Positions 4,956 to 46,904 of a stretch of DNA of 56,939 nucleotides are shown here, one piece after another. This stretch comes from a virus (taxonomy: Duplodnaviria; Caudoviricetes), in IMG/VR virus record IMGVR_UViG_3300023179_000127, positions 1-56,939 of that record; one strand, 5' to 3'. A program made the position numbers and the translations under genes. The notes under the pieces are model-generated. The model saw only the letters and a list, made by a program, of their open reading frames with translations, searched no databases and was not told the origin of the DNA. Position 1 is the stretch's first letter. Each line of letters opens with the position of its first letter.

Positions 4956-6419
4956 TTATGACGGTATAGTGGCAGGAACACCTTGAGGAACACTCTTCTT
5001 CACAAATCCCATGGTAGAACTTATGTAGTTTTCGGAAACTAGAGCGTTAAGAAGAATTTTTTGATATTCATATATGCGTTTAAGAACTCGGTTTACTACA
5101 AAATTAGTGACTAACTCATTTTCTCCAATAAAATTCTCTATATCTTGTTGAAAGATAAGCTGGTTTAATTCTTTTTCATTAAAATACCTAGTGCCCTTGA
5201 ACAGATAATTACCTTTGCTATCTTTTAATTGTAAAAACTTACCTTCTATTTGATCTCTGAATCTCATATGGTTAATAAGCAATTTGGCAATTGCTTTGTT
5301 AAATACCCAGTTTTGAACATATTCATCTTCACCTAAATGAATTTCTTCTTTAGTATACACGTCAAAATCTGGAACAGATAATACATCGAACAAATTAATG
5401 TTGTCATAAAACAAGCTAAATTTACCAGCATTATTATCAACATCTTTAGAAAACATTAATGTAAAATCATTAAATTTTTCTTTCGCAGGGTCTGGGTCGA
5501 CATCAATTTTAGCAACATCAAATGCTCTGATTTTTTCTTTTGTGTTAAATTGAAACAAATAGAACAGATACCACCCTACCGTATAAAAGGGATATCTTGT
5601 GAATTTTTTGTATATATTGTTTTCTGTGACCACATAACATAATGATGGGTCAGTGGGTGAAAAATAAATTCTATTAAAAAATTCATTTTGCGGCATATCG
5701 TATGTTAGTTCTTTGAGATCGTAAACGTATTTGTTGTTAAAATTGTCAATGTAAGATAATAATTTTTGATTGCTAGTGAGTACAGCAATTTCATTATCAA
5801 TAGTTGAATTAATAAAGATTGGATATGCTGATAAAAAGTCTTTGGTTAGCAAATAGGTAAATTTCCAGTTGAGGTTTTCATCAAACCTTTTAATGCAGTT
5901 GTTAGATGAATCTAAAACTAGCAATTCGTCGTTTTGAACACACATACTTCTAGGTGAGTTAAAGGACGTTTTATCCGCAAAGTTACCAATGTCACCTATT
6001 GTGTCAACATACATGAGTTTGTGTTTTAGTATGTTATTTTCTGTTGTAAATCCATCTATTTTATAAGAATGTAGTTGTGATGTACCAGCATCAAGAACAT
6101 AAAAATGATTTTTAATTAAACTAAAAGCAGTAATTTCTTTAAAGTATGTGCTCGAGCCTGTAAACACCTCGTTAGTGCTCAATACTAATGTTATAGAAGA
6201 TAGGTCTAGAGGTGATTCAAAAATGCATATATCATTTCCCTTGGAAGCAGCAAGATAAATTTTTTCTTGCGTTTCATTAGGTATTAATTTAATAACCCGT
6301 ATGTCATCTATGTTGTCAAAAAATGCGTTATATAGAGGTAAAAACTGACTAGTGCTAAGCTGACTTGGACCTGTTGTGCTCCACATGAAATTTTGTACAC
6401 CGGTGAAATCCATGCTCAT
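4956..6419 (-). CDS. Putative virion beta-propeller (NHL-like) protein, 487 aa
   Basis: FYVLDAG, FNSPRSM...LLVLDSSNNCIKRFD resemble NHL repeats. ATGA overlap with the upstream gene. Confidence 0.6.
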   Translation of the reverse strand: MSMDFTGVQNFMWSTTGPSQLSTSQFLPLYNAFFDNIDDIRVIKLIPNETQEKIYLAASKGNDICIFESPLDLSSITLVLSTNEVFTGSSTYFKEITAFSLIKNHFYVLDAGTSQLHSYKIDGFTTENNILKHKLMYVDTIGDIGNFADKTSFNSPRSMCVQNDELLVLDSSNNCIKRFDENLNWKFTYLLTKDFLSAYPIFINSTIDNEIAVLTSNQKLLSYIDNFNNKYVYDLKELTYDMPQNEFFNRIYFSPTDPSLCYVVTENNIYKKFTRYPFYTVGWYLFYLFQFNTKEKIRAFDVAKIDVDPDPAKEKFNDFTLMFSKDVDNNAGKFSLFYDNINLFDVLSVPDFDVYTKEEIHLGEDEYVQNWVFNKAIAKLLINHMRFRDQIEGKFLQLKDSKGNYLFKGTRYFNEKELNQLIFQQDIENFIGENELVTNFVVNRVLKRIYEYQKILLNALVSENYISSTMGFVKKSVPQGVPATIPS

Positions 6420-8185
6420 GCTACTCTCCCTATTTTTGGATAATTAGATGCAAGTGGGTGCATGTTACCTGTGCCGCCGCCATGGAAGAATTGATTGTTG
6501 CCACCAATAAATGTGAAGTTATATCCATTTCTTACCATTGCGTATCCAGGTGTACCAGTACTGCCTCTATTTTCTTGCCCGTACCCCCAGTTACCAAGAC
6601 TACCGCCATCTCCTGCTCCGTAGCAGAATTCTCCGCATTTGGCACCTACAAGCCATGAACTGTTTTGTTGTTCTTGTAAAATACCGCAATTTTGTGCTTG
6701 ACATCCATTATTGAGCCAGTAGTTGTAGCATTCTGACCATGAATTAATACCGCGTTCAATCGTTCTATCAGAGCATGCTTGCAAGCTTTTCCATCCTGAA
6801 TTAGCAATACAGAAATTTATGCCTCTCGCATTAGCTACCCCGGCTCCAGCTCCACCCACCAAGCTAACACCGTTAATATTTTCAAATTTATCAAACCAAT
6901 AGTTAGTACTATCCATTTCACCACGACCACCGCCGCCAGCAATAATACCATCATTAATTATTTTTAAATCCCAATCTAAATGTATTGCATCGCCGGCTTT
7001 ATCAATAGACGTACCATTTAATTTGTAATGGTATTCCCAATCTTGCAAAACATTATCTGCTCTGGATGATCTGCATCTACCATATAGGAAGGCAGTAGCC
7101 AATCCATTCTCCACATTAGAGCTGTCTTGACCATAACCGGCTATTACACCTTGAGCAGGGAAATCTATGTTGCCAGCTTGACCGTTTTCTGTGCAATAGT
7201 TAGTTGCTCCATTGGTAGGTCTGCTATATACTGCAGTCGCAGCTTGAACCTTCTGAGTTCCTATGACTTGAGGGTTAATCAAAGTAATTTCACTACCAGA
7301 AGGCCAACCAATACCGGTTCTAAGAGCAGGCCCTTTGCCGCGCGTGGCGCCAATAACACCTTTGTTAACAAAAGTAGCGATAACAGGATTTGAAAAGGAA
7401 TCAGCTTTTCTATTTAGCTTCATCATCATGTATTCAAACAAGTTAACATCAAGAGTCAAAGCTCCATATGATCCAATTTCAATGTATACAAATTCTAAAG
7501 GTACAGATGTGGAAGGCGTGTTGGTATTTGTAACTGTTTGCGTTAAAGTGGGTGTTTGTGTAGGTGTAAGTGTCAATAATGGTGGTGTTTTAGTATTGGT
7601 AAGTGTGGGTGTCATTGTGAGCGTCGGTGTTCTCGTATTAGTGATTGTTTGAGTTGGTGTTCTTGAAGGGGGTTGTGTAGCAGTAGCGGTTTTTGTAGGT
7701 GTAGGTGTAGTAGTTAGATTAGGTGTAAGTGTAGGTGTACGTGTTACAGATATGGTAGGTGTCACTGTAGGAGTGGGTGTAACTGATCTTGTTAAAGAAA
7801 TAGTAGGAGTCAGTGTTTGTGAAGGTGTAACTGTGCGTGTAACTGTAATTGTGGGGGTTACTGTAGGTGTATTAGTAACAGTTATGGTCATTGTTGGTGT
7901 TATAGTAGGTGTTTGAGATATGGTTAATGTAGGTCTTGGGTATGCGCTTAACCCTGCCACACCTACACATGAAACCGGTATAACATTAGACGCAATTCTA
8001 GAATGTTCGTACAGATAAAGAAAATTGTCATACAGTTTATCTAGTCGTACATTAATAGAATCTGTAGTAATCATTTCATTTACAGGTATTTTTATGCTTT
8101 CAAAATCGTACGGTAGTTCTAGCTTCTTATTGACGTATCTGTCAAAGAATCTGCCAGCATTTTTTGCTATTTCGAAAATGTTCAT
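6416..8185 (-). CDS. Thr/Pro-stalk protein with C-terminal gp38-like glycine-rich adhesin domain, 589 aa
   Basis: ~80-aa globular N-term, ~150-aa T/P tract, then NKGVIG...GWPSGSEITLIN...GVIAGYG...INDGIIAGGGGRG...GGAGAG. Confidence 0.6.
   Translation of the reverse strand: MNIFEIAKNAGRFFDRYVNKKLELPYDFESIKIPVNEMITTDSINVRLDKLYDNFLYLYEHSRIASNVIPVSCVGVAGLSAYPRPTLTISQTPTITPTMTITVTNTPTVTPTITVTRTVTPSQTLTPTISLTRSVTPTPTVTPTISVTRTPTLTPNLTTTPTPTKTATATQPPSRTPTQTITNTRTPTLTMTPTLTNTKTPPLLTLTPTQTPTLTQTVTNTNTPSTSVPLEFVYIEIGSYGALTLDVNLFEYMMMKLNRKADSFSNPVIATFVNKGVIGATRGKGPALRTGIGWPSGSEITLINPQVIGTQKVQAATAVYSRPTNGATNYCTENGQAGNIDFPAQGVIAGYGQDSSNVENGLATAFLYGRCRSSRADNVLQDWEYHYKLNGTSIDKAGDAIHLDWDLKIINDGIIAGGGGRGEMDSTNYWFDKFENINGVSLVGGAGAGVANARGINFCIANSGWKSLQACSDRTIERGINSWSECYNYWLNNGCQAQNCGILQEQQNSSWLVGAKCGEFCYGAGDGGSLGNWGYGQENRGSTGTPGYAMVRNGYNFTFIGGNNQFFHGGGTGNMHPLASNYPKIGRVA
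7500..7940 (-). repeat. Degenerate Thr/Pro coding repeat tract
   Basis: TPTxTxTx repeats; boundaries approximate. Confidence 0.9.
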
Positions 8186-11100
8186 TAGTTTTTCCAGGTA
8201 ATGTTATTTAACTTGACATGTGCGGGTATCAATTTGCTAGCTATTTCACGTATTTTACCTTCTAATTCTGCCTTAAACTGTGTATCTACTATTCTACTGT
8301 TGTTAATGTTTAGATTTATCACATTTGACTTGTGCCCGGGTAATTTAAATTTAAAGAATCTTTCAATTTCTTCTATGAAATTGCGTTTTCCACAAGGTAC
8401 ATAAAAATTAATATCCCGTACTTTCATGTTTGCTTTAGAGTGATTTATAATATCATAAGATAGTAATGCTTTATCATAAATGTACAGGTTTTTTATTTTT
8501 ACTCCCTCTGCTAAGCTTGTCTTTTTCTTCAAATATTTGAAAAGTGGCACTGAATATGCGGCACCAGATGTTCCAATTAAGAAGGGCTTATGCACAAATT
8601 CTCTCATGGTGTATTTTGCTGGCATAAACCTAGTAACATTAGTGTAAATACCGTCTATGTACAAATCCATTTGACCGATGTCACAATTAACACGTACAGC
8701 AAAATTGTGATACCCAGCATCTAACTGAGTTAGATCAAACCGCATTTCTGGAAGAATAATATCATTATAGTTGCTAGGTGTAGCTACAACAAGCTTGATG
8801 TTTAAACTGCTATCAGGATAGGCATCATGTATGTATTCTCTTAAATATTCGCTGTTGTTTATCTTTCCGAATGCGCTTGATGTGCTTTTGTAGTAAGTTG
8901 TTTTGAGTGTAGGTACTGCTTCTGCTGCGTCCAGCACGACATACTCTACATAGTTGCTGCTTAATGGGCTTAATCTGGAAAATACGATCCTGTCACTTAC
9001 ATCTGATTCAATAAATTCAGTTAAAAGATTTATTTTGTAGTTCTTAAAGCCGCTAGGCAACGTACTTGATAGCATTACATTGAATGTAGCAGGGTCTATC
9101 TTAACATAATTTTTGTCTTGATCTAGTACCCAAATAAACCCGTCGAAATCAATAGTAAAATCATTTATAACTGTTGCTGCATGTACCATTGAAACAATGT
9201 TTGTGCTTAAATTCCAATAAAATACACTATTATCTTTGAGATAATAAATCTGCTCACCGCGGCGTTCTGCTTTGTCTCCATCAGTAAAGAAAATTATATC
9301 ATTATCTTGTATTGTTGCAGCGTGAATTGTTTTTATTGTTGACAAATTTTTAGAGAATGATGTGCCAGGTACAAATCTTATTGAGTAAAAGTTTGAATTT
9401 AAGCTTTCATAAATTTCATCTGTAAGTAAATTGTATCCTTGTATGGTAAGATTGGTTCTTCCTTGTTTGCCATACATGCCACCATCGTTGGCTGATAACA
9501 TTAGTGCTAAATGACCGTAAATGTCAAAGTCCAATATGTCATTTATTCTTCCTTTCACTTGTCTGGACACTACCTCAACATTGTTAGGATTGTATTTTGA
9601 TATTTCACCGTCGCTGAACATGATATGGTAATCAGTAAAATCGTTTGTTCTAAAAATATACTTTATGTCTTTGTTGAACTGCAATTTTCTCAAAACAGTA
9701 AAGTCTGTGTTTGTTATATCTATGTTGCGATTTCCACCTAAAAACATTAATGCAGTGTTAGGGACATAATTGTATATGCTGAACCCGTACTTATCAAGAT
9801 TGCCTATGATTTGATTGCCGAATGGCTTTGACCAATCAGCACAGTACATGTCAAATATAATTGTAAACTCAGAACTTTCACCTATGCTTGATAAATTAGC
9901 TGAGTTTGTGTATCTGTTACCATCAAAAACAAACTCAGCATCTGGTTCAATAACATCAAACACTTCAATATCCCCTGTAGTTCTGAATGTGCTTACATTT
10001 CGTTGAACAAGATATTCGTTCAGTGCTTCTATTCTGTGTTTAACTCCTTCTGGCCCGACTCTATAATAAGCATAATAACAACCAGGTTCAAAAGTAAGAG
10101 CAGACGGTGTATCAAAAATATCATACTTGTCTGCATCTGGTATTTTGTTAATTTTATTTTGAAACTCTGGCACATAATACATGGCTTTAAAATCGTCTGC
10201 AGTAAGAGCATTAAAGAAATTTACTTTCTGTGGGTTATAGTATCTGTCAACCCACACTGGGCGAGAATTAACGTCACCATTACCAGATAACCAGCTACAT
10301 AAAAAGCTTCCTGTTTGTTCATCAATAGCATCACCGAAATAAGATGAATGTTTGTAATTAGCTAGTTTTTTAAATACTAAATCAGATTTTAAAGGGTGGT
10401 CGGCTGCAGTAGCACCAGCTTCAATTAACCCCGAATCTCTAATGTTGATTCTGTTGAACGGGTACATGTCTGTTGGCATATGAAAATATGTAATTTTGTC
10501 GTTCTTAAGTAAAATTTTGGTAGAGAAGGTTTCATAACCAAGCGATATATTGTCATTACCATAGTTTTGACGTGACCCGGTGAATAATTTTTTGTAGTCT
10601 CTAAAGTTGCACAAGTCTTCATCATAAAACGGTGCGTTTCTTGCTTGACCACCTTCAGATGTGAAAGTATTTTTTAAAGACAATATGTTTACTGGCATTT
10701 CATTGCCAGTGATAGCGTAAAATTCACTGTTAACGAGTAGGTTCGATTTTATATTAGGAAAACTTACATTTTCATCAATTTCTGTTGAATTTGTTTTAAA
10801 AGTTTTTTCATACGACACCCATGAATCTTGTATTTTTGAAACATTAGCTGGATCAGATCTTTTTATACATTTAAAAATAGATTTTAAATCAAAAGGAAGT
10901 GCAAACCCTGTGACCGGATCTGTTAATGTTAATTTTTCTTCTTCATTTATTATAACATATTTTGCTATATCGTTAATATTTTTATAGAAGACGATGTAAT
11001 CAGAATCTCGGTCATACAAATAGTAGAATATTTGAGGACTGTATCTACCTAAGTAATCTGATTTAGTATCTTTACAAAATATTAAATTTCCTATGTAATC

Positions 11101-11596: not shown

Positions 11597-12826
11597 TTAT
11601 CTAATAGTTCCTAAGTAGGGCCCGTATATTAAGAATGATGTGAAAGCTCCTGCATATGCTTCTTTGAATGAACCGCTAAGTACTTGCCATTGAGTGATAT
11701 ATTGACCGGTAAAGGCTAAGCCATCGCCAGCGCCAAGCTGACCCTCTTCATTTCTACCTACAGAATACGCATGATTTTCATTATCTACAACAACTGTGTG
11801 TTCATACCCTGCAGCTATTGATTTAATAGGGACACCGCCCCATGGACCTATGTTAGTTATATTTATAAAGCTAAGTGACATTGCTTGGCTGTTATTACCT
11901 AGCTGACCGGCATTATTAAATCCTGTAGAATATATTTTACCATCTTTGTCAATAGCAATTGTAAATGTAGATTTGCATGCAACATCTCTCCATACTATGT
12001 TGTCTGTGTTTTGCACAAAATATTCAGTTAATGTAGATGTACCTAATCCTATGGCGCCGGATAAGTTTGTACCAGCAGTAAACATGTTGTAATTACCGCC
12101 GCCGACGGATGATAGTAATATAGTAAAGTTGTTACCACAAAACACTTTGTCAAATCTAGGCTGTTCAACAGGAGTTACATTACCAGCCAAGCGAACTCTG
12201 GCGGGTGTTATGGGTGTAAATGAATAAAAGTTTGAAAAAGCAATTTCATTGAACCCGCATTGTGCATCAATATTTAAACCTGTTGTAAGTGCAACGCCAT
12301 CAGAACTTAATGCGCATGTGTGTAGCAAACCGCATGCAACATCTTTGAAACTGCCATTAATTGGTGTGAATAGTGCACAGCTTAACACACTTACACCGAG
12401 TCCCAATTGACCTTGTTCATTGTAACCAGTAACATACAGAGTGTTGCCTGCAATAGCTGCAGAATGTACAATACCAGCAGCAACTTTAGTGAAATTGGTA
12501 GGTGTTGGTACTCTTACAGTGCCTGGACCATCAAACATTGTAGAGGATACTTCAGGTACTAAACAAAACGAACTCACAATAAAGGTATGAGTGTTGGTCA
12601 CATTGTTGTCTAGACCTAACAAGCAACCTGTAAACTTATTAGATGGTACTGGATGACCAGGATTAGGCTCTAGAAGCAAATCTTTTACTAAAGGAACAAC
12701 ATCATTTACACCGGCACCGTATAATTTACCAGTAGAATCAATTGCAAGTGTATGATAATAACCACCGCCAACAGAATCCCATGTGCCTGTATTGGCAATG
12801 AATGTGGTTTGGTATGTCTGATTCAT
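11597..12826 (-). CDS. RCC1/BLIP-II repeat beta-propeller, 409 aa, lacking the first half-repeat
   Basis: Repeats such as GYNEQGQLGLG...VACGLLHTCAL, GFNNAGQLG...IAAGYEHTVVV and GRNEEGQLG. Confidence 0.85.
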   Translation of the reverse strand: MNQTYQTTFIANTGTWDSVGGGYYHTLAIDSTGKLYGAGVNDVVPLVKDLLLEPNPGHPVPSNKFTGCLLGLDNNVTNTHTFIVSSFCLVPEVSSTMFDGPGTVRVPTPTNFTKVAAGIVHSAAIAGNTLYVTGYNEQGQLGLGVSVLSCALFTPINGSFKDVACGLLHTCALSSDGVALTTGLNIDAQCGFNEIAFSNFYSFTPITPARVRLAGNVTPVEQPRFDKVFCGNNFTILLSSVGGGNYNMFTAGTNLSGAIGLGTSTLTEYFVQNTDNIVWRDVACKSTFTIAIDKDGKIYSTGFNNAGQLGNNSQAMSLSFINITNIGPWGGVPIKSIAAGYEHTVVVDNENHAYSVGRNEEGQLGAGDGLAFTGQYITQWQVLSGSFKEAYAGAFTSFLIYGPYLGTIR

Positions 12827-12862
12827 ATTAGTATTTATTTATTTGGTTAATTTTCATAGTGA

Positions 12863-15166
12863 TTAGTAATTTTTAGCCTCATCAAAAGCATTCAATGCAG
12901 CAATGGTTGTTGTTGGAGAAGGTGTAAGAGTACGTGTATTAGTTGGTGTAGAGGTGTTAGTATTTGTAACTGAAACTGTGGGTGTTTGTGTAGGTGTATC
13001 AGATGGCGTAGCAGTCACTGATTCTGTTGGTGTCTGAGTAGGTGTATCAGTCACTGTAGGTGTAGGTGTCAGAGTAGGTGTGTTAGTAGGTGTCAGAGTC
13101 TGTGTATATGTTTGTGTTGGTGTAGCTGTTTTAGTTAAAGTAGCGGTGTTAGTTAATGTAGCAGTCTGTGTAACAGTGTTGGTCATTGTAGGTGTACTGG
13201 TCACTGTGGGTGTTGGTGTTACTTCTGTTGCAGTGTTGGTTGGTGTTGGGGTATGAGCCCATGGTACCCCTGCAGGAATAGTTACTGTTCTGGTTAAAGT
13301 AGGTGTGTTAGTAGGAGTTCTTGTGGGTGTTACTGTTAAATTAGGTGTCAAGGTGGGTGTTAATGTGGGGAATGGAGTTTCAGATGCTGTATAAGTTTGT
13401 GTTAATGTTGGTGTTGTGGTGTCAGTCACTGTTGGTGTAGGTGTTAGCAATGTTCCTGTGTTGGTTTGTGAAGGTGTATAAGGAGGTACCCCTGTTGAAA
13501 CAGTTACGGTAGGTGAAACGGTGGGTGTCAGGTCTGGTGTAGTTGTAGGTGTCTCTGTTAATGTGTTGGTAGGTGTTGCAGTCACTGTTGTAGACACTGT
13601 CTGAGTAGGTGTTGGTGTCATAGTGATGTTTGTTTCTGTAATTGTCATGGTGTTGGTAACTTGTGGAATGTCTAATCCAAGTTGACCGTGCATGTTGATA
13701 CCAGCGCGGAACATGGCCTCGGTTACTGGTGTCGGCGTTGGTGTCGGTGTAGCAGTTGTAGTACGAGTAATTGTTGGTGTGTTTGTGGATGTTATTGTCT
13801 GTGTAGGAGACAATGTCATGGTGTTCGTTAGTGTAAATGTTGGTGTTTGTGTTACAGTGTTTGTTAACGTTTGAGTTGCAGTTATTGTAGGTGTAGGTGT
13901 TGGTGTTCTGTAGTTCTTGGACTCGTCTTCGCCAACCAATATAGCGGGTGTAGGTGTAACTGTGTTTGTTACTGTCAAGGTTACAGTCTGTGTTACAGTC
14001 TGTGTATTGGTTGGTGTATTTGTAGGAACTTGTGTAGGTGTAACAGACGGTGTCTGTGTTGCTGTCTGCGATACAGTAGGTGTATTGGTTGCAGTTGTTG
14101 TCGGCGTCTGTGTAGGTGTATCGGTAAGTGTAACAGTTGGGGTCTGCGTCTGAGTATTTGTGTTGGTATTTGTAATAGTAGGTGTGCATGTTGGCGTCTC
14201 GGTTTGTGTAGACGTGGGTGTGACTGTCTGTGTAACTGTTCTTGTAGGTGTTTGTGTGAAGGTTGTTGTAGGTGTCTGTGTAGGAATAGCAGTAGGTGTA
14301 AGTGTGTTTGTAGGAGTAACAGTTCTTGTGAGTGTGTTTGTTGGTGTAACTGTGCGTGTCATTGTTAATGTAGGTGTTACTGTAGGTGTTAGAGTGAATG
14401 ACGGCGTCAATGTCAAGGTCAGTGTTATTGTCGGTGTCAATGTCATGGATGGAGAAATTGTAGGAGTAGGTGTCGGTGTAACAATTTCATCTGATATTGC
14501 AACGTTAGACAAATATTTCTTACCTTTTAGTTCCATGACCATCAAATCATTTTCATACAGCTTGTTGTTGACTTTGCTAAACGGTAATTGACGCGCTTCT
14601 AACAAATGTATGTCGCCTAATTCATAAACTGAGTCTTGCAACACGCACAAGATATAATTGAACGTGGTTTGTGTCATGTTACCGTTAATAACACTAATAG
14701 ATGGATAATATGTTGTTAGATAGTTACTAGATTGTTTGTATACATGTGGTACGTTTACTAGATTAGGAAATAATGATTGTTTGGGGTTCTTTTCATCAAT
14801 ATTTTCAATAATATCTTTGCTTATGTCAGTAATTTGACCGTCACCAAAATTATATATAATTTTTAATACTGCAAAAGTAGACGCTTCTAACGCAGACGGC
14901 ATGAATACAACAGTGGTATCACCTTTGCACAGGGGTAATGGCTGCCACGTTACTGTATCTTTGATGGGATAACCATATGGGAAAAATAACCCGGCATTGG
15001 CACGTGATGTATACTTTGAGGGAGCAGCTTCAAATATATCACCTGAAGCAGATACCGGAAATTCAATTTCTGTATCATAAACTGGGTCTAAAAACAAATA
15101 ACCGTTTAAAAACTCACCTCCAACATACGGGACACTGGATGATAAGAGAACTGACAGAGTGTTCAT
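12863..15166 (-). CDS. PKD-like domain plus very long Thr/Pro tract carrying an RCC1 half-repeat island, 767 aa
   Basis: [11 protein letters not shown]-like motif; ~530 aa of T/P repeats; [17 protein letters not shown] island; AGGAGG upstream of the ATG. Confidence 0.7.
12905..14480 (-). repeat. Degenerate Thr/Pro coding repeat tract (~530 codons)
   Basis: GT-rich plus strand (gtaggtgt...); boundaries approximate. Confidence 0.9.
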
Positions 15167-17727
15167 TATGGCCCTCCTTCAGACGGTGTTGGGGTTGGTG
15201 TGGGAGCCGGTGTCATGACTTCAAATAATAGATCATTTTGATTTTGATTGTTTTCTACCCATCCAGCTATTGGTATATTATTTACATCTGTTGAAGGGTT
15301 GTTAGCTATTACTTGACTGGAGTCCAAATTAAATAGCACCCATGTGCTGCCTATGCTATTGTCAGTAGCCACACTAGGATCCATGAATACCATTAGGTTG
15401 TATTGCCAAACATAGCCGCTACCGCTAGAATTCTTAATGTACGTACCATTTAATTGATAATTTGGATTAGAAGCCTGTACATTGTATACTAAGAAATTGT
15501 CATTTGAAGTGCTAATACTGTAATTAGGTGTTGTAGTAATTGTTGGGGTTGGGGTTGCAGTAGGCTCATTTGTTGTTGTTTGAGTTAATGTCACTGTGAC
15601 AGTAGGTGTGTTTGTGGGTGTTTCAGATGGTGTGAATGAAGGTGTATAAGTCAATGTACTTGTTTGTGTGACTGTTGGTGTATTTGTAGGTGTCTTTGTT
15701 AGTGTCGGTGTTAATGTAGGTGTCTCAGTTAATGTGGGTGTAGCAGTAGGGGATAGACCTGGTGTTGTTGTTGACGTGACAGTGCATGTGTTGGTAGGTG
15801 TAGGTGTTACATTGGGACTGTATATAACATCAACTAATGGTTTTGCTTTGCCTTGCAGTGAATTCCATTCTAAATTGCTTATTACGGCAGAAGCATTGTA
15901 ATAAGTGTCTGTGTTGAGCGTTGCATCAAATAATACCCATGCATCTAATGACGGTGAAGACGGTGTGCTGATTGTACGGAACTGGATAGTGTTGCCATTT
16001 GGTCCAATAAAGTTTTCAGTAGCGCTAGATCTTGTATACAATCCAACAGATGATGCATCTTCTGCTTCAACAACATTAATAGCAGAAATGTAGTTTGAAG
16101 TGAACGGTGTGTATGTGGGTGTTACTTCAAGATCCCAAACAGGGGTAGCTGTCGTGGTGGTAGTGGGTGTAGCAGTGGGTGTAGGTGTTGATGTTTCAGA
16201 AACAGTAGGTGTTAAAGTTTGAGTTGCTGTTGATGTAGGTGTTACTGACTCTGTTGGTGTTAATGTAGGAGTTTCAGTCAACGTGGGTGTAGGTGTTGAT
16301 GTGATTGTTTCAGTAGGTGTAATTGAAGGTGATACAGTTAGTGTGGGTGTTTCAGTCAATGTCGGGGTAGCTGTTACAGTCTCAGTAGGTGTATATGTAG
16401 GTGTAGCTGTTACAGTCTCTGAAACTGTAACTGTTGGTGTCGGTGTTGCAGTATAGAGAGGAATATCTACACCGACTTCACCAAATCTGTTTTGACCGGC
16501 GCGGAACATAACTTCTTGTGGTTCTGTCGGTGTAGGTGTGGATGTAACTGTATTGGTCGGTGTGGGTGTTTGTGTAACGGTCTCTGATACTGTAATTGTT
16601 GGTGTTTGTGACGGCGTTACAGTCAATGTTTGGGTCAATTCCGGTGTACCTGTTGGTGTAGGTGTAACTGACTCTGTTGGTGTCATGGTAATCGATTGTG
16701 TTGGTGTTACAGAAGTTGTAGGCGTTACTGATTGCGTCTGAGTAACAGATTGTGTAGGTGTAGATGTAACTGTACCAGTTATTGTTGGCGTTACAGTTGG
16801 TGTAGCTGTAGGAAATGCAGTACGGGTTGGTGTAACTGTTGGGGTAACTGTTCTTGTAGGTGTAGGTGTTAACGGCCGCGTGTTGGTCTGTGTTACAGTT
16901 TGTGTTACTGTTTTTGTAGGCGTTGGGGTTGTTGTGGGTGTAAAAGATTGAGTTAGTTTGGGTGTTAAAGTTACAGTCTTTGTGGGTGTAGGTGTAACTG
17001 TAGGTAGAGGCAGAGTTTGTGTTAAACCGGGTGTCAATGTGACTGTAACAGTAGGTGTTACAGTTAATGTATTGGTGACAGTTGGTGTGGGTGTGAGATA
17101 TGGGTTCGTCTCTGTTGGTGTTAATGTGGGTGTAGGTGTCGGCGTAAATTCAGCTTTTGCATCTGTGTAGAATGCATTTGAATTTAAGCTTTTTATTTTA
17201 AGCATTGTATCTGTGGATTCAAACAATGGTTTTGCAAATGAAAGGACAGGGTAAACGCTTGGCGGAAATGCTATTTTTTCGCGTAAGTCAGTTTTGAACA
17301 GTGTAACAAATTTGTCTTTAATTTTGTGTTCTACTTCTAGCGTTCTGCCTTGATTTGTTAGTCTCACTCTGAATGTTCTGTATTCTGGTACAATTCGCAA
17401 TTTAGTTTCAATATCTTCAGAAGAAGCTGGTCTATATAGTGTGAATGGCTCTTTAAAAGAAGATAATGCGAGGTTATCACTAACAAACAACAATTCATTT
17501 TCAAAAAATTGTGATATTGTAGGTGTAGGTATAATAGTTCTGGTTAATGTTTGTGTGGGTCTGGGTGTTCTGGTGGCTGTAGGGGTGTTTGTTATTCTAA
17601 ATGTTGTAGTTAATGAGATTGTTGGTGTGACTGTGGGTGTCCATGTGGTTGTTGGTGTTCTAGTAGCTACAGGTGTTAAAGTTAGAGTAGGGGTACTGGT
17701 TAACGTGGGTGTTGGTGTCGGAGTCAT
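15166..17727 (-). CDS. Thr/Pro mucin-like protein with lectin C-half, RCC1 half-repeat island and two small beta domains, 853 aa
   Basis: Starts directly in TPTP repeats, with globular islands at ~17161-17510, 16459-16509, 15820-16104 and 15214-15504. Confidence 0.7.
15185..17727 (-). repeat. Thr/Pro coding repeat tracts interrupted by globular islands
   Basis: Seen in translation; boundaries approximate. Confidence 0.9.
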
Positions 17728-17805
17728 TGTACCTTATTCTCCAGCATGCAGTTCATAGAATTACTCTATTATTTAATAAGCGAATCTAGCTTTAAAGGTC
17801 TTAAC

Positions 17806-19494
17806 TTATTTTATAACTGACCAAAAAGGTGCCCATTCACCAGGTAAAACAACAGGGCCTAACTTAAATGCACGGTTAAACCCAATTACAGCCATGGTTC
17901 CGTCCGAATTTAATGCTAATAACGTGTATTCGTTACCAAAGCCGTTGCTAGCAACATCTACTATCTTATTGCCGCTCATAGTGTTAAAGGGTGGGTTCAC
18001 TTCAATCCAACCTTTGTGATCACCTACGCCTTGTGTGCCAGGCATGTAGCCTGCAGCAAATAAACGACCATTATCTAGTAATAGCAAAGTTGTAGTAAAT
18101 TTGTTTGTACCGCCGCAAACTACAGTTTTAATAGTACTATCATATTCTCTAGCATCAAAAACTTTAGTAAATAGCTTAGTAGTGCCATCTGTTAAACTAT
18201 TGCCTAATTGCCCATAACCATTGTATCCGCAAGCGTATAGTTCATAACTGTCACTGGTTTTATAGAAAGTACTAGGAAACTCACCACCACCGGTATAAAC
18301 TGCGCCGACATTTACTGCTATTTGAGTGGCGCGTGTCAATTCTAAAGTGCTGTTGTTGCCTAATTGACTGTATGTATTAGCTCCCCACCCGTAAAGTATA
18401 CCGGCAGCATTAAGAGCAAAACAAGTTGACCCTACATTTGCTCCTTCTATTGCAATCTGAACAATGTTTGTTAAAGTTGTTTTGCTAATATCATTTTGAA
18501 CAGAATGCCAAATAGGATTTACAGACGCTTTGCCCCCGTCACCCATTTCTCCGTTAGAACCAGAGCCTATCGCTTTAACTTGACCGTTATTTAATAAAGC
18601 TAGTACTGTTGATCCTTTGGATATGACATAGTTTACGTTGGAAAGGTTGCATGAAATAACAGAACGCTTGGGTGTTGTGTCACCAGTGCCTAGCCAGCCG
18701 TAACTATTATGACCAAACCCATATAAGTCGTTGGTATTACTAGTGATAAACATTGTAGCAGAATTGCCACGAGTATGAAACGGTAGCATAATATTTTTAG
18801 GTACAAAGCCTAGCTCAGTTTGGCTTAAACTGTTTGCAATATCAAAATAAAGATAATTGTTTGTGCTGCCTTTACCATCACCAAAAGACCAATTACCGCC
18901 TAAAAATATTCTGCGCTCAGTGGTAATACCTGCCCAATATTGATAACCGTTGTAAACATAATCCCAATTATAATCGCGGTATGTGTAGGTGTTTCCAGCA
19001 GGGTTAACAGGATAAAAGGCGCTGTAACCTGTACGAACCTGTGATAAACCTACACTGTTAGTATTTCCAGAAAAGATTATGTGTTTTTGATTGCGGGAAA
19101 CAAGCAAATTGTAATCATATGCTCCTGCATTGCGTGGCAGCCCATTATATGAAAATCCTGTTGTATTATCAAGCGCTCCTAAGGAAGTAATTTTAATGTT
19201 ACCTGTACTAAAATCTAATGAGATACCATCTCCTGCAGAAAGCGATAATACACCATTATTTGATAGTACTACTCTGTTACCATCACGGAAAACATTAATT
19301 CCAGGGTTGCTTGATTCAATAGAAGTTACAGGGTCATTGCCTTCAGAAGATACTTGCACTTCATCCCATTTAGTCAAAAGATCATTTACAGTGATTTTGT
19401 ATGTGCCTGTATCATCTTGAATAATAAGATAATCAGTAGGTAAAGGGCTACCTATTAGCTTTGGCAAATCATTAATTTTGATTACATTCGACAT
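17806..19494 (-). CDS. RCC1-repeat putative receptor-binding protein with fibre-type N-terminal module, 562 aa
   Basis: N-term IKINDLP...TYKITVNDL; repeats LYGFGHNSYGWLG, LYGWGANTYSQLG, LYACGYNGYGQLG. Confidence 0.8.
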   Translation of the reverse strand: MSNVIKINDLPKLIGSPLPTDYLIIQDDTGTYKITVNDLLTKWDEVQVSSEGNDPVTSIESSNPGINVFRDGNRVVLSNNGVLSLSAGDGISLDFSTGNIKITSLGALDNTTGFSYNGLPRNAGAYDYNLLVSRNQKHIIFSGNTNSVGLSQVRTGYSAFYPVNPAGNTYTYRDYNWDYVYNGYQYWAGITTERRIFLGGNWSFGDGKGSTNNYLYFDIANSLSQTELGFVPKNIMLPFHTRGNSATMFITSNTNDLYGFGHNSYGWLGTGDTTPKRSVISCNLSNVNYVISKGSTVLALLNNGQVKAIGSGSNGEMGDGGKASVNPIWHSVQNDISKTTLTNIVQIAIEGANVGSTCFALNAAGILYGWGANTYSQLGNNSTLELTRATQIAVNVGAVYTGGGEFPSTFYKTSDSYELYACGYNGYGQLGNSLTDGTTKLFTKVFDAREYDSTIKTVVCGGTNKFTTTLLLLDNGRLFAAGYMPGTQGVGDHKGWIEVNPPFNTMSGNKIVDVASNGFGNEYTLLALNSDGTMAVIGFNRAFKLGPVVLPGEWAPFWSVIK

Positions 19495-19512: not shown

Positions 19513-22443
19513 TTACAGCTCTAAATGAACATCTCCAAGCATATCTTCATGACCTGAAGGTCCTTCATTGTTGTCTGTAGTGGGATCTTTTAATCCCGGG
19601 ATAAAGATGTTTCTAACTGGATTAAACCTTGCAGGTGTTGATGCGGCTTTGCGGCTTCCATCGTTTTCTACAACTTGAACAGTATAGAATGTATCTTGTA
19701 CATTAGGTATTTGAATCTTTCTCACTGATGTGTTGTCGCCTTGAGAAGATGTCCAGTTTATACCGTCAGCTGTATAGAGCAATGTGACTTGAGTACAATC
19801 TAGTGATGTGCATTTGATGTTCCATGTCCACATAGTACCGTCCATGGAGCTAGTCATGCGAACCATGGTGGGTCTTCTGCCATATAATGCTGTATGTGTC
19901 ATGGTCATAGTTGGTGTGGGTGTAGGCGTTAATCCGGATGTTTGAGTAAAGGTAGGTGTCATGGATGGGGTAGGTGTGACTGTTCTTGTTGGTGTAACAG
20001 TCGGGGTACCGGTCATAGTTGTAGTCGGGGTGTTGGTTGGTGTATCGGTAACTGTTGCTGTGACCGATTGAGTTGGTGGCGGTGTTGGTGTGTTTGTAGG
20101 TGTAGAAGTAATTGTTTGAGTCATACCTGGAGTCAATGTCACTGTAGGTGTCACAGTTAATGTTGCTGTTTGGGTAATGGTTAATGTGGGTGTAGCAGTT
20201 GGCGAAACAGACGCTGTCACAGAAATTGTAGGTGTTTGTGTGGGTGTTAATGTAGATGTACGAGACACAGTATTTGTTACTGTGGCGGTTGTAGTGGGTG
20301 TTGGTGTTGTCTTTCCTGACGCAGTATTGGTCATGGTAATAGTAGGTGTAAATGTTGGTTGTGGTGTGCGTGTAGAAGACATTGTCGGTGTAGGTGTTGG
20401 TGTAACAGATGTGATTGTGGGTGTGGGTGTGACTGGTGTACCTGTAGGTGTTGGTGTACCAGAAGGTATAGGTTCAGGTATATAGTACCTGTTTGTAGGT
20501 CCTCTTACAGCTATGGTATTAGGACGAGGCATTCCATATCCCAGCAATCCATAAGCAGATGTAGAAAACATTCCTGTTAAATCAAATCCTATGCCAATTA
20601 CACCATGCGGTATACCTGTGAATAATGCTCTGCTAAGCATTCCATCATCATCTCTGTACACATCTAACTTGCTATATCCTAGAGAAGGGCCCGGGCCACC
20701 ACCTGTTAACGGGCTCAAGAATGAATCAACTAATGATAAACAGAAGCCTTCACCGCCAGTGAGATGTTCACCGTAACATGAGTATTCAAACGTTATGACA
20801 ATGTCCTTCTTGGTATCTAATTGTTGATCCAAATAAATGGCGCCGGAATACGCAGTAAGCATGTATTCCATTGTCATAAATTGTGTGTGAGTAATAGTTG
20901 GTGTAAAGGAAGGGGTTACTGTGATGGTAGGTGAATTAGTAGGCGTGGCATTAGGGGTTGTTGTTGGTGTTCTTGTAACTGTAGGTGTGAGTGTATATGT
21001 GACAGATTGAGTTGGTGTCTGTGATGGAGGACACACACCTAATGCAACTAAAGGAGCAGGGCTTGATCCATTTACTGGAACCCAGCCAGTTGTAGGTATA
21101 TAGAAAGGTACTTTAGATGGGTTAGTATATTTTACATTGCCTTTATAAAACTGCCAATCAGGGTTATACCAATCACCGAAATATAAGATGGGCGTAAAAG
21201 TACCGACCCTGCTAAAATATGTGTTGTTAGGTAGTAATTCATATGTACCATTGACTTCACCGCTACCTGCAAACGATACACAAACGTTTGTTGCAGGTAT
21301 GTTGTATGTGGTGCTTGTCACTGTTGGTGACGGTGTGGGCGTCATTGTCAGTGTGGGTGTGGGCGTGGGTGTAATTAAATCATGAAAATTAATTAATTCA
21401 GTTTGAACGTCTGTTGTACCTAGAGCACAATCAAAAGTTTTTATAGCTGCTATGAGACCGTTATATCCTTCTGAATTAGTTGGATCATTTTTGTTTAAAG
21501 CAGAACCTACTGCAAAAGGATCAGTTGATGTGGCACTTAAATCTCCGAAGTAAGATGTAAACGGTATAGATAAGCCGCTTAAAGGAATTATTTTACCTGT
21601 GTCCTGTAAACCTTGGCTGTATGGTATTAGATATTGTAAATTACCGTTAACATATAACCTTACATTTTTTGTAGAAGCATTTAAAGATAATAATATATGC
21701 TTAAAGGAATCATCTGTAAGTACTTCTTCTTGTGTTTGATGGTAGATTGTATTGTTGTTAGAGAGTGAGCCTATGCCAATTACTACTTTTCTACCTTCTT
21801 GCTTTATAAAATAACCAGGTGCAAAGTTCCATCCACCTTTACCTACTATTCTGCGTGAGAAATTAGCAACGCTGCCAGATGCTACAACAGAAACTGTAAA
21901 GCTATCTGTGTCATGGTTATGCTTGCTATCATAAAAAGGAAAATATGTAGATAGTGCAGGAAAATTGTTAGAATCAGTAAATGTAAAAATTCTGTTTCCA
22001 TCTATACCGACATTATGAACAACGAGACTATTGTTGCCTTCTATAGACAAGTCGCGCACATAATCCCCGCTTTGACCGTCGCCTGAATAACAGTCTAACG
22101 ATCTGCTATCAATTGTCATGTCTAAGCAAATGTTAATGGTAGGGGTCGGTGATGGTGATTGCGAAGGCGTCTGAGTGGGTGTTATTGTATATGTTTTGGT
22201 CGGTGTGGGTGTTCTTGTGTATGGATTAGTTTCAGTTGGTGTTAAAGTAGGGGTCGGTGAAATACTTGTTGTTGGTGTTGCTGTTACTGTTCTGGTAGGA
22301 AATGGTGTTTGTGTAGCAGGCGGTGTAGCTGTTACTGTGCAGGTAGGTGTAGGTGTAGGGGTATTATAATACAACACGATATTTTGATTGATATCGGTTA
22401 ATAACCCTTGATTATTATCTGTTAATATTCTGTTGTCAGACAT
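19513..22443 (-). CDS. Multidomain Thr/Pro protein: LamG domain, small beta domain, L-type lectin N-half, C-terminal Ig/FN3-like domain, 976 aa
   Basis: LamG: SFTVSV...FKHILL...RLYVNG...YNGLIAAIKTFDCAL. Lectin: GGEGFCLSL...GPSLGY...IGIGFD. Confidence 0.7.
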   Translation of the reverse strand: MSDNRILTDNNQGLLTDINQNIVLYYNTPTPTPTCTVTATPPATQTPFPTRTVTATPTTSISPTPTLTPTETNPYTRTPTPTKTYTITPTQTPSQSPSPTPTINICLDMTIDSRSLDCYSGDGQSGDYVRDLSIEGNNSLVVHNVGIDGNRIFTFTDSNNFPALSTYFPFYDSKHNHDTDSFTVSVVASGSVANFSRRIVGKGGWNFAPGYFIKQEGRKVVIGIGSLSNNNTIYHQTQEEVLTDDSFKHILLSLNASTKNVRLYVNGNLQYLIPYSQGLQDTGKIIPLSGLSIPFTSYFGDLSATSTDPFAVGSALNKNDPTNSEGYNGLIAAIKTFDCALGTTDVQTELINFHDLITPTPTPTLTMTPTPSPTVTSTTYNIPATNVCVSFAGSGEVNGTYELLPNNTYFSRVGTFTPILYFGDWYNPDWQFYKGNVKYTNPSKVPFYIPTTGWVPVNGSSPAPLVALGVCPPSQTPTQSVTYTLTPTVTRTPTTTPNATPTNSPTITVTPSFTPTITHTQFMTMEYMLTAYSGAIYLDQQLDTKKDIVITFEYSCYGEHLTGGEGFCLSLVDSFLSPLTGGGPGPSLGYSKLDVYRDDDGMLSRALFTGIPHGVIGIGFDLTGMFSTSAYGLLGYGMPRPNTIAVRGPTNRYYIPEPIPSGTPTPTGTPVTPTPTITSVTPTPTPTMSSTRTPQPTFTPTITMTNTASGKTTPTPTTTATVTNTVSRTSTLTPTQTPTISVTASVSPTATPTLTITQTATLTVTPTVTLTPGMTQTITSTPTNTPTPPPTQSVTATVTDTPTNTPTTTMTGTPTVTPTRTVTPTPSMTPTFTQTSGLTPTPTPTMTMTHTALYGRRPTMVRMTSSMDGTMWTWNIKCTSLDCTQVTLLYTADGINWTSSQGDNTSVRKIQIPNVQDTFYTVQVVENDGSRKAASTPARFNPVRNIFIPGLKDPTTDNNEGPSGHEDMLGDVHLEL
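19895..22365 (-). repeat. Four Thr/Pro tracts (~19895-20470, 20885-21025, 21310-21375, 22135-22365)
   Basis: Seen in translation. Confidence 0.9.
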
Positions 22444-22481
22444 ATATTTTATTATTTACGTTGTTGCTTCCATTTGTAAAG

Positions 22482-25400
22482 TTAAGGTTGAACTGTAATA
22501 TTCAGACTGTCGTCTGATACTATTGGATCTCCATCATCCGTTAAAAGGTTAAATAACTCTGCTATGTTCCAAATATATTCAGGTATTCTGACATTTAAAG
22601 GGGCGCTTTCAGTGCCAAAATTGTTTACAAATTTTAATGAGTAAACAACATTGCTATCAAACCCTAGATATCTAGTAATATCAAGGTAGTCAAAGAAGCC
22701 GGTAGTGCCAAAATTGTTTGAATACCTGTACGAACTACTCATTGTCGTGTATGGCTGGCCGTTAATATACAGTGTTCCTTGTGTGGCTTTCTGTAAGTTG
22801 AAGCCACCATAAGTAATAACCAATCTCATGGATCCTTTGCTGCAAAGATTGGTGAACGGATTTAATTCACATGGTAATACTGGTCCGCTAACAGTTTGTA
22901 GCTGTACAGTAGGTGGCTCTGTAATGAGCGCGTCAGCAGGGTAAGTGGGTATTGCAACAGTAATTACATTGCTTCTTAATGCAAAATTATTGGCTGCTTC
23001 AACACGAATAGCTGTGTTACCATCAAATTCACGCAAATAGAAATTGGCATAACCGTTAACAACGCCAGCACTAGAATGTATTCCGCCGTTAATTATGAGT
23101 GTAACGGTAGATGCAGTTACCAAGTCGTAAGAGCCTGCTGCTACTCGCACATGGAATCCACCGTTGGTACAATTTTGTGTAATAGGGTTTCTTACGCAAG
23201 GTTTGGGTGGGCCGGAGACTGTTACTAGTTCTACAAATGGATTTACAACTATAATTTCTGTAGGTGTGAGTGTAGGTGTCATGGTCAATGTTGGTGTTAA
23301 TGTAGGTGTAGTTGTTGGGCCTGGTGTACGGGTGGGAGATGCTGTTACTGATGCAGTTGGCGTTCTTGTAGGCGTAGTGGTCTTTGTTGGTGTAATTGTC
23401 GGCGTGATTGTCGGTGTTCTGGTTGCTTCTACAGTGTAGGTTAATGTCAATGTAGGTGTTACTGAAACTGTTGTAGTTGGGGTTGCAGTAACTGTAATAG
23501 TTGGTGTATTTGTTGGTGTCACTGTTCTTGTAGGTGTAACTGTCGGCGTTCTTGTTAATGTCGGGGTGGGGGATGGATCTAACCCAGCAGTCGATGAAAC
23601 TGTTAATGTTGGTGTTACAGTGGGTGTTCTTGTTAATGTCGGAGTGGGTGTAGGTGTAGCTGGCTGTGTTGTTGTCGGTGTAGGTGTCATAGTTACAGTT
23701 TGTGTTGGTGTAACTGATTGTGTGACTGATACTGTAACAGTGTTTGTCGGGGTTTGAGTAATAGTAGGTGTTTGTGTAAATGTAGGTGTAGGTGTGAGTT
23801 CTGGGAACGGATCGGCTGCATCTAAATTAAACGTAAATACACCATCTTCTGTAATGGAGCCAGCAACACCTCTGAACGAATCAAAATCGCTTACAACATC
23901 ATCACTTGTTTTACTGGTATAATCACGAAGAAGCGGGCCTACACTTGGGTCACAGAAGTTTTCAGAATAAACATCTATTCTTGGCTTAAAGAAATTATTC
24001 TCTACAATTTCTAACTTATCTGCAATATACTTAAAAGAAGTTCTATATACATAAAACAAATTAGAAATATCTTTACCTAAGAACGAAATTACATAGTAAT
24101 TTGTATCATCATTGTAATTTACTAGAGGTTTTTCTGTGTTAATTATGTTTATTTTTACGTCTCTATCTACTTCTACAATGGAATAAGTGAATACATCTTC
24201 TAGAGATAACTGTCTGTTGAATGGATACAGTTTTATAACATCACCAGAATTAATATCAACTTTGTAAATTTCAGGGTAAATAATTTTTTGAGTCGTGCAG
24301 CTTAATTGATAAAACAAATTTGTCTTTACAAAAAACAGTTCTTTAGATTTTTCATTAAACCAAGGCAGAGATACATCTTCAAAATCTCGATGATCACCTT
24401 TATAAATTACTGTGTCTGCGCGTGCATTGCCAAATATAATGTTTGATTCAAAATCGAAATATAATTTTTCAAATATTACATAGTTTTCAGTTTCTATGTA
24501 AAGCAAATCGTAAAACATGTCAAAACTTACAACATGATCATTAACCTCATTTAGAACATCTTGATTGTATTTTATGAATACACCACTTAATGCAGCAGAA
24601 AGCGGTTGAAGTATGGATGAATTGTTGTTACGAAAATATATAGTACCTTTTACCTTGTTGCGTGCATCATACAAGGATTCAACGTCCTCTGTATTATCTG
24701 TAGTTGTATCATATTTTGTTAATCTATTGTCTGTGACGATATTGAAGAAGTTGCTTCTTATGAAGTACGGTTCAGGGTATCTGTAGATGTCAGAGCACGG
24801 ATCAGCACTTGCAACTAACATGTAGAAACCATCTAGATTCCAAACACCAGTGCCTGAAGGTACAAAAGTAAAATCTGGTCTATACAGATAGCTGGGACGA
24901 TAATTAGGTGGCTCCGCTCTGCGACTTGCACCGCTGTCGATCAAAACATTATAGTACAATGATCTGTCTGCAGGAGAAAATTCAGGTGTATCAGTGTTGG
25001 GGTCATAATATTTCGTAGAAAGAGAAGGTATAAAGTTTAGACAATCGTAAATTGAGCAATCAAATGTATCGTACACATAATTCGAGCTTTGGCAGAAGTT
25101 GTCAGGTAGCATTCTGTAAGATAGAACAAAGTCAACTTTTACGGCTGTTAATGAGAATGAGGGCGGCTCTGTGTCATACAAAGATAAATCAGGGGTCCAA
25201 TATTCGCGTAATCCGTAAGAATATGGTGCGGTTCTAGTAAATACACCTGAATATTTTTTAATTGGATCATAAGTAGTGTAGTCAAAATTAAAACCAGATA
25301 ATACATCATAGTATTGATGACCGTTGAGTATCAAGCATTGCTTAGCATCAGTGCGAAATATGCCTGTGTCTACTAGCCTTTGAGCTCTTGTTAAATCTTT

Positions 25401-46355: not shown

Positions 46356-46904
46356 TTAGGTCAATTTTCTAAAATAATGATAAGCAAATGTGACAGGGAA
46401 TTCTACTGTTTCACCGGTTCCACCAGCAATATTGTAATTGATGGCACCGACGCTACGAATAGAAACACCTACTAGCTGATATTGAGCAATCTTAGCCAGC
46501 TGATTGTCAAGCTGTACTAAATCCATGATGGCTGTCTGTTTGGGAGAGAAATAGTTACCAGTGCTTGTGCTGTCATCGAAAATATCACGAGACCATTGTT
46601 CAAACTTCTGTCTGAGCTGAGAAGCAGCATCACAATAAAAATTCAATGTGTAAGCTTCACTGCCTGGATATGTTGCATTACCAGGAAGATTGAAGTTTAA
46701 GCCCATGTAAGGAACAGCAACATTTGTAATTGCTCTTTCAGGCAATGAAGCGGATTTGCAATACACTAAATCATCTTGATTGAAGGATACATTGCTTGCT
46801 CCACCGGTGTTGATTGAGAGAACACGGAAATTATAATCGCGTGCGAACTCTCTACTTGCTGCTACTCTGTAAAAGTCTGTGATTAATTGTGATACATCAG
46901 CCAT
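46356..46904 (-). CDS. gp19: Tail tube protein
   Basis: CKSASLP...VPYMGLNFNLPGNATY...FEQW...FPVTFAYHYF; directly after the sheath gene. Confidence 0.85.
   Translation of the reverse strand: MADVSQLITDFYRVAASREFARDYNFRVLSINTGGASNVSFNQDDLVYCKSASLPERAITNVAVPYMGLNFNLPGNATYPGSEAYTLNFYCDAASQLRQKFEQWSRDIFDDSTSTGNYFSPKQTAIMDLVQLDNQLAKIAQYQLVGVSIRSVGAINYNIAGGTGETVEFPVTFAYHYFRKLT

Follow-up and report, generated by a model that had tools for sequence, protein, structure and literature searches.

How does a propeller protein close its ring when a piece of its last blade is not part of its own chain? This question is raised by a gene cluster in IMGVR_UViG_3300023179_000127, a 56,939-nucleotide virus record (Duplodnaviria; Caudoviricetes) that we analysed over its whole length and refer to as the window. 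The cluster encodes a 409-residue RCC1-like protein and, upstream of it, two proteins of 767 and 853 residues with long threonine/proline (T/P) tracts; each of these two proteins carries within such a tract a 17-residue peptide that resembles the piece lacking from the RCC1-like protein. An earlier sequence-only reading of this DNA had proposed that the peptide, hereafter the tag, completes the seventh blade of the propeller in trans. The analysis supports this proposal in silico, through the conservation of the tag, the absence of the element from the whole propeller family, an open blade in the AlphaFold2 (AF2) model and a prediction of the complex, and we lean towards a naturally split RCC1 propeller that is closed by a strand encoded in the stalks, as we call the two T/P proteins. 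The genes and tags concerned are as follows.

11597..12826, minus strand: 409-residue RCC1-like propeller whose closing blade is incomplete, the presumed receptor of the tag (from Pfam, AF2 and Foldseek)
12863..15166, minus strand: 767-residue stalk protein; a globular N-terminal domain (residues 1–229) is followed by a T/P tract of ∼525 residues with tag 1
15166..17727, minus strand: 853-residue stalk protein; T/P tracts alternate with three globular domains, and tag 2 is held here
13664..13714, minus strand: tag 1, 17 residues (485–501 of the 767-residue open reading frame, ORF), predicted to donate strand C and the GQLG loop
16459..16509, minus strand: tag 2, 17 residues (407–423 of the 853-residue ORF), the other copy of the donor peptide, which has diverged more

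The 409-residue protein scores above the Pfam cut-offs for PF25390 (157.2 against 150), RCC1_2 (106.7 against 22) and RCC1 (80.6 against 21.7). The PF25390 match begins at profile position 35, which corresponds to residue 17 of the protein, and the upstream stop is followed by only four codons before Met1 of the ORF, so there is no hidden N-terminal extension. Six half-repeats are present in cis, not the seven of a ring closed within one chain, and blade 1 is degenerate (GAGVND, with an insert of ∼60 residues and without GQLG). The sequence-only reading was right that the protein begins in the middle of a repeat, but the whole leading half-repeat is not missing as it had claimed: the N-terminus (TTFIANTGTW) keeps strand D, and it is strand C and the GQLG loop that are gone.

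This gap is a property of the family and not of one sequence. A collection of 5.8 billion proteins contains four relatives, two of 409 residues with 97 and 84% identity and two of 405 residues with 54% each, and the next match has an identity of 28%. All five members (the 409-residue protein and P0001–P0004) start at the same Met (MNQ) and lack the element; residues F9, A11, N12, T13, G14 and W16 are invariant among them. At the other end of the chain the family shares the signature FLIYG.Y.G.IR; residues 397–401 are invariant in all five sequences, as are ten of the 15 residues 395–409; the invariant residues of the tail are G402, Y404, G406, I408 and R409. Distant homologues that form the propeller from one chain come in two arrangements, either starting with strand C and GQLG and ending after strand B (for example P0015, P0046 and P0078) or starting with strand A and ending with strands C and D (for example P0050 and P0017), and a regular expression finds up to seven strand-C/GQLG motifs in both. 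P0015, a canonical bacterial RCC1-like protein of 394 residues, is ∼31% identical to the 409-residue protein and has the same repeat unit; its D+A+B unit, TTFLGGT.WKSV..GYYHTAAI, aligns with residues 7–29. P0015 has strand C and GQLG in cis at its N-terminus (residues 33–48), followed by strand D, and it ends just past strand B, whereas the window family begins without this piece and is extended by a C-terminal tail and by the blade-1 insert. By this comparison, the chain is split at the loop that would join strand C to strand D in the closing blade. A count of homologues with a half-repeat upstream of strand A1 (five of 68) was dropped as not meaningful, since MAFFT displaces repeat proteins by entire blades and the homologues come in two circular arrangements.

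Both tags are indeed found inside T/P tracts at the positions first reported for them, as the ORF residues confirm, and their first 11 nucleotides, ATGTTCCGCGC, are common to the two. By a windowed average of the T and P content, they are non-T/P islands of 26 and 23 residues within T/P tracts that are several hundred residues long. A loose regular expression for the half-repeat, run over all six frames, matches at seven distinct sites: four in the 409-residue protein, one in a second RCC1-like protein of 562 residues and the two tags. The number of chance matches expected from the residue frequencies is 0.004 for this loose motif and 1.2e-10 for the strict tag motif. With BLASTP, the best alignment of the tag to P0015 is to the N-terminal half-repeat at residues 33–48 (E value of 0.014, for that single comparison), and within the 409-residue family the nearest match is blade 4, with ∼50% identity. 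Gene conversion between the tags and blade 4 was considered and rejected, as the DNA identity is only 0.48–0.58.

Three lineages were compared: the window, L002 (from IMG/VR) and L003 (from a metagenome); two further records (L004 and L005) are of the L002 virus. The 409-residue sequence alone retrieved none of them from viral contigs, an alignment retrieved L002, and the metagenome contigs yielded L003, L004 and L005. L002 and L003 have the gene order of the window, with a propeller that is only ∼55% identical, and the island is present in both stalks of every lineage, six proteins out of six. The tags are VMFRAGANLHGQVGIDV and VMFRAGANLQGQIGVDI in L002 and VLFRAGLNAQGQIGLDI and VLFRAGLNAQGQIGLNI in L003. 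In the six-row alignment F-R-A-G-x-N-x-x-G-x-x-G is invariant amid T/P tracts that are otherwise unalignable, with F, R, A, G, N, G and G unchanged in all six copies from the three lineages. The orthologues of the 767-residue protein have 611 (L002) and 592 (L003) residues and those of the 853-residue protein have 635 and 634, the T/P tracts varying in length by up to ∼220 residues; the island is found at residues 485–501 of 767, ∼500 of 611 and ∼480 of 592 in the first family and at ∼407–422 in the other.

Between lineages the nucleotide identity of the tags is 0.53–0.69, and that of third codon positions 0.29–0.54, while the residues are kept; selection therefore acts on the peptide and not on the DNA. 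Within L002 the two tags (7441–7512 and 9615–9686) have a DNA identity of 0.79 over 72 nucleotides with flanks and of 0.85 over the 48-nucleotide core. The corresponding values are 0.90 and 0.98 in L003 (1229–1300 and 3376–3447) and 0.60 and 0.69 in the window, where the pair has diverged. The likeness within L002 and L003 suggests that in some lineages the two stalk genes undergo gene conversion with each other, and near-identical tags within one lineage would fit both having to suit one partner. Other searches for relatives returned little. A degenerate DNA pattern of the tag matched only the L002 contig and, twice, an unrelated globular protein without T/P tracts; a search with the neighbouring 1128-residue protein led back to the L002 contig alone and had no match in cultured phages; tblastn of the 36-residue tag segment against cultured phages gave no match. 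A cultured relative was not found.

The elements of the propeller that matter for the predicted structures are the following.

12791..12820, minus strand: residues 3–12 (QTYQTTFIAN), outermost strand D of blade 7 by the alignment to P0015, predicted to cover the tag
11618..11644, minus strand: residues 395–403, strand B of blade 7 (B7), the predicted pairing edge for the tag (lowest-error contacts 399:12, 397:14 and 400:11, propeller residue first)
11600..11623, minus strand: residues 402–409, the C-terminal tail GPYLGTIR, conserved; a possible cis strand, lock or placeholder
12566..12580, minus strand: residues 83–87 (IVSSF) of the family-specific blade-1 insert, in the interface list as a predicted contact of the tag loop; four of the five residues are invariant

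The 409-residue protein alone was predicted with AF2 from a 104-row alignment, with a mean predicted local distance difference test score (pLDDT) of 77.3 and a predicted template modelling score (pTM) of 0.81; a run with only five rows (pLDDT of 54.7) was too poor to use. Foldseek matches the model to UVR8 (E value of 1.9e-23) and RCC1 (PDB entry 1a12; E value of 2.4e-21) with TM scores of ∼0.67–0.75, which together with the pTM confirms a seven-bladed fold of the RCC1/UVR8 type. Blades 2–6 have four strands each, and blade 1 has three strands and the low-confidence insert (residues 43–105). Blade 7 is predicted with two strands only, A (387–392) and B (397–401), and residues 1–10 and 407–409 have pLDDT values below 50. 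A ring closed without the peptide would have spoken against completion in trans; the model of the single chain does not show one.

For the complex, the 409-residue alignment was combined with a six-row alignment of 36-residue tag segments, in which the tag of the 767-residue protein was the lead and that of the 853-residue protein was present only as a row. The interaction prediction score from aligned errors (ipSAE) was 0.75, 0.79 and 0.76 in the three runs (score of 0.76); the highest-scoring of the three controls reached 0.00. The mark that this prediction passes is reached by 58 of 80 solved complexes and by two of 110 mismatched pairs, figures that apply approximately here since our own alignments were used. 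The runs have at least 81% of their contacts in common, and the pLDDT of the partner is 61–62. In the model the tag is placed between B7 (397–401) and the N-terminal strand (3–12) and runs antiparallel to B7, with its residues M11, F12 and A14 paired with propeller residues 400, 399 and 397, respectively. The GQLG loop of blade 6 (361–365) packs on tag residues 14–15, as in a normal blade, and the loop of the tag itself contacts blade 1 and insert residues 83–87. Residues 3–12, which have a pLDDT of ∼40 in the monomer, are within the confident interface of the complex, as are residues 402–403 of the C-terminal tail. The predicted interface is more often invariant (30 of 46 residues) than the rest of the protein (151 of 363; Fisher p = 0.0027), which is partly expected for core strands. 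Folding with and without the peptide had been suggested as a check on the trans proposal; in these predictions blade 7 has only two strands in the propeller alone, and the slot is filled when the tag of the 767-residue protein is supplied.

Taken together, the findings suggest that docking of the propeller on the stalks probably works through a donated strand. The 409-residue protein would supply six blades and, for the seventh, strands A and B from its C-terminus and strand D from its N-terminus; the missing strand C and GQLG loop would come from the 17-residue islands placed midway in the long linkers of the two upstream stalks, themselves envisaged as beads-on-a-string fibres with long T/P spacers. 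At assembly the island would slot between B7 and the N-terminal strand, its loop would pack on blade 1 and the family-specific insert, and the ring would close, fastening one propeller per stalk at a set distance from the N-terminal part of the stalk. The genes are contiguous and co-oriented, the stalk genes overlap, and genes for baseplate wedge, sheath, tube and tail fibre flank them, all of which we count in favour of this reading. Judged from their place in the tail module, the proteins would be located on the virion and serve as an adhesin, the propeller probably being a host-surface-binding head on a flexible stalk. A more elaborate version is conceivable but doubtful: the propeller could be self-capped, with the tail GPYLGTIR temporarily filling the strand-C slot until the stalk peptide displaces it by donor-strand exchange, which would give a kinetically locked joint and place binding heads at defined points on the two T/P stalks.

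A number of points weigh against the split-propeller reading. The whole of the support for completion in trans is computational, and three lineages are too few for covariation. The tags are recognized weakly as RCC1 sequences: a Pfam scan of the six 36-residue segments returned no family. An 18-column half-repeat profile, built from 362 segments of distant homologues and scoring genuine repeats at 24.2 to 1.7 bits, ranks five of the six tags as the best matches outside RCC1 proteins, but at only 4.4–1.7 bits, with one chance match at 1.8; the tag of the 853-residue protein, the most divergent, is absent among the profile matches listed. The fused tag–propeller homologues that the sequence-only reading had suggested looking for did not turn up. 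None is present among longer proteins carrying residues 1–110, which is weak evidence, and a scan of 1.84 billion representatives with the 409-residue protein was swamped by giant multi-RCC1 proteins, P0003 being the sole full-length relative matched in a single stretch, and is likewise weak evidence that says little on fusion; a one-chain ancestor within the 409-residue family is thus something that we infer. The termini of the AF2 model depend on five alignment rows, so the open blade may reflect missing signal. The complex prediction may echo solved one-chain RCC1 folds, as pieces of known folds tend to pass, and neither another RCC1 half-repeat nor a complete propeller was among the three controls. 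Finally, the C-terminal tail is conserved, and its Y-G-[P/D]-Y, read as a tight turn, could let it pair with B7 in cis.

This last point leads to a different account of the closing blade, in which the tail (Y401-G-P/D-Y404…R409) forms a short strand C beside B7, the N-terminal strand completes a 3+1 velcro closure and the tags bind elsewhere, at an edge or face, or bind another partner. The five invariant residues of the tail would be understandable in this case, as would its length, which exceeds the C-termini of the canonical relatives (these stop right past strand B) by 4–8 residues, and residues 404–409 are outside the confident interface of the complex. However, AF2 leaves 402–409 as low-confidence coil in both runs, the complex model confidently assigns the slot to the tag, and a peptide resembling strand C and GQLG that is kept in both stalks is left unexplained; we consider closure in cis unlikely. 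If the tags serve some other partner, this could be the 562-residue RCC1 protein, whose gene is directly upstream of that for the 853-residue protein, or an assembly chaperone, or the tags could pair with each other and cross-link the stalks through a small β-sheet. The 562-residue protein has, by eye, a full set of eight strand-C/loop motifs, one beyond the need of a seven-bladed ring, and a C-terminus formed by strands C and D, leaving no evident slot. The closest internal match of the tag is blade 4 of the 409-residue protein, which is also the protein without the element. A partner other than this propeller is accordingly quite unlikely in our estimate.

The remaining accounts deny the peptide a present function. 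The islands are clearly derived from RCC1 repeats and sit in T/P tracts whose lengths vary greatly between orthologues, as might be seen if they were remnants of an RCC1 domain into which T/P tracts had expanded, or neutral interruptions of the linker. A relic would decay, yet seven positions are invariant in six of six copies while the third codon positions and all of the flanking linker have diverged, and we regard a functionless island as very unlikely. It is more improbable still, to the point of being hardly credible, that conservation of the stretch reflects an element of the DNA or RNA (an internal start, say, or a site of recombination or gene conversion) and not a peptide. The 11 nucleotides common to the window tags, the near-identity of the tag pairs in DNA within L002 and within L003, and a first tag codon that is ATG or TTG in all six copies are what such an element would predict; the divergence of the nucleotides between lineages, with the residues kept, is not. 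No consistent Shine–Dalgarno sequence is seen by eye before the first codon, and an internal start at this ATG or TTG was rejected for that reason.

The nearest mechanistic precedent for a split propeller closed by a stalk-encoded strand is found in Sec13 and Seh1. According to PMC2922654, these are open six-bladed WD40 propellers to which Sec31, Nup145C or Sec16 contributes an insertion blade that closes the ring in trans, and residues 1–6 of Sec13 supply the outermost strand as a velcro closure. The likeness is that the propeller is incomplete in cis, a partner donates strands and the N-terminus of the propeller itself is the outermost strand (predicted here to be residues 3–12). The differences are that Sec13 is WD40 and not RCC1, and that its partner gives the three strands of a whole blade, whereas the tag would give one strand and a loop. 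The Sec13 donor adjoins an α-helical domain in eukaryotic coat and pore proteins, whereas the island interrupts low-complexity T/P linkers in two proteins of a phage tail module, and the window pair is known from prediction. The fold and Pfam assign the 409-residue protein to RCC1, so that the likeness is one of mechanism and not of homology.

Donor-strand complementation in chaperone–usher pili offers a second comparison: one missing β-strand is supplied by another chain and inserted between two strands, giving a stable non-covalent joint of a surface fibre. The predicted window pair shares with it the single missing strand that comes from another chain and slots between two existing strands. 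The pili differ in being bacterial, in their Ig-like fold and in using a terminal extension as the donor, and exchange against a placeholder is known there and is speculation here. Among man-made pairs, strand 11 of split GFP and SpyTag/SpyCatcher likewise have a short peptide that completes the β-structure of a larger partner. SpyTag and SpyCatcher become joined by a covalent isopeptide bond, of which there is no sign in the window pair; the word 'catcher', which the first reading had used, finds no support in this covalent sense. The Pfam scan shows no CnaB family in the scanned proteins.

In the open-access literature we found no report of an RCC1 propeller completed in trans, or of such tags in phage fibres or tail appendages. 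Eukaryotic coat and pore proteins already provide propellers completed in trans, and bacterial pili provide examples of strand donation; if binding is confirmed, the window would add a natural case in which a single β-strand in a disordered low-complexity linker completes a propeller from a separate gene. Phages could in this way attach binding heads along flexible stalks without gene fusion, leaving the length of the stalk and the head free to evolve separately. The pair would be a small natural peptide/protein docking system for protein engineering and, should the self-capped exchange hold, a natural orthogonal system of 17-residue tags for RCC1 propellers. It would also provide a concrete structural role for phage RCC1-like proteins, which are common and still labelled 'regulator of chromosome condensation'; a jumbo-phage paper (PMC7247149) continues to consider that such proteins may organise DNA.

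The two stalk genes overlap, the stop of the 853-residue ORF running into the start of the 767-residue ORF (TAATG, within 15164–15180 on the minus strand), and GGAGG is found nine bases upstream, suggesting that the two are translationally coupled. Pfam assigns no family to the 767-residue protein. Its N-terminal domain (residues 1–229) has a weak PKD/Ig-like resemblance with a score of 0.85 (Atlas), which is a lead only. A search with this domain of the 5.8-billion-protein collection gave no homologue, and even the orthologues from L002 and L003 were missed, so T/P proteins may be under-represented in that collection. The same protein has two more non-T/P islands of 14 residues that are similar to each other, at 13907–13948 (residues 407–420) and at 12866–12907 (C-terminal), both on the minus strand; by eye, neither is seen in the L002 or L003 orthologue.

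The virus of the window is uncultured, and the record is a fragment with an estimated completeness of 26%. It contains a T4-like structural module with tail sheath, two tail-tube paralogues, terminase, baseplate hub and wedge subunits, and a tail-fibre protein, for which the nearest cultured matches are remote (29–41% identity for the sheath and 31–38% for the terminase). The co-oriented run of genes on the minus strand lies between the baseplate-wedge and tail-fibre genes and encodes, in this order, a T/P-rich protein of 976 residues, the 562-, 853-, 767- and 409-residue proteins and the conserved 1128-residue protein. The cluster belongs to the module for baseplate and tail fibres of a distant T4-like myovirus. 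The second RCC1-like protein is given here for context, with no sign of involvement in the predicted docking.

17806..19494, minus strand: second RCC1-like protein, 562 residues (Pfam RCC1 50.9 bits and RCC1_2 47 bits; PF25390 142.5, below the cut-off of 150)

Its N-terminal part of ∼130 residues is not RCC1. The two tail-tube paralogues (both phrog_45) are at 46356–46904 and 49261–49863 on the minus strand, on either side of the tail-sheath gene, with the large terminase gene directly adjacent, and a clamp-loader gene is situated among the baseplate genes. Further T/P-linked module proteins are encoded at 6416–8185 (minus strand) of the window and at 2–1513 and 14625–16400 of L002. They end in glycine-rich domains with runs of G, and neither the half-repeat regular expression nor the profile finds an RCC1-type island in them; the one of 589 residues has a weak match to a tail-fibre PHROG. 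The T/P tracts, made of ACN and CCN codons on the minus strand at 12000–18000 and 20000–24000 of the window, bring the GC skew to values between roughly +0.25 and +0.37 and produce long spurious ORFs of 83–255 residues in other frames, which are rich in G and V on the opposite strand.

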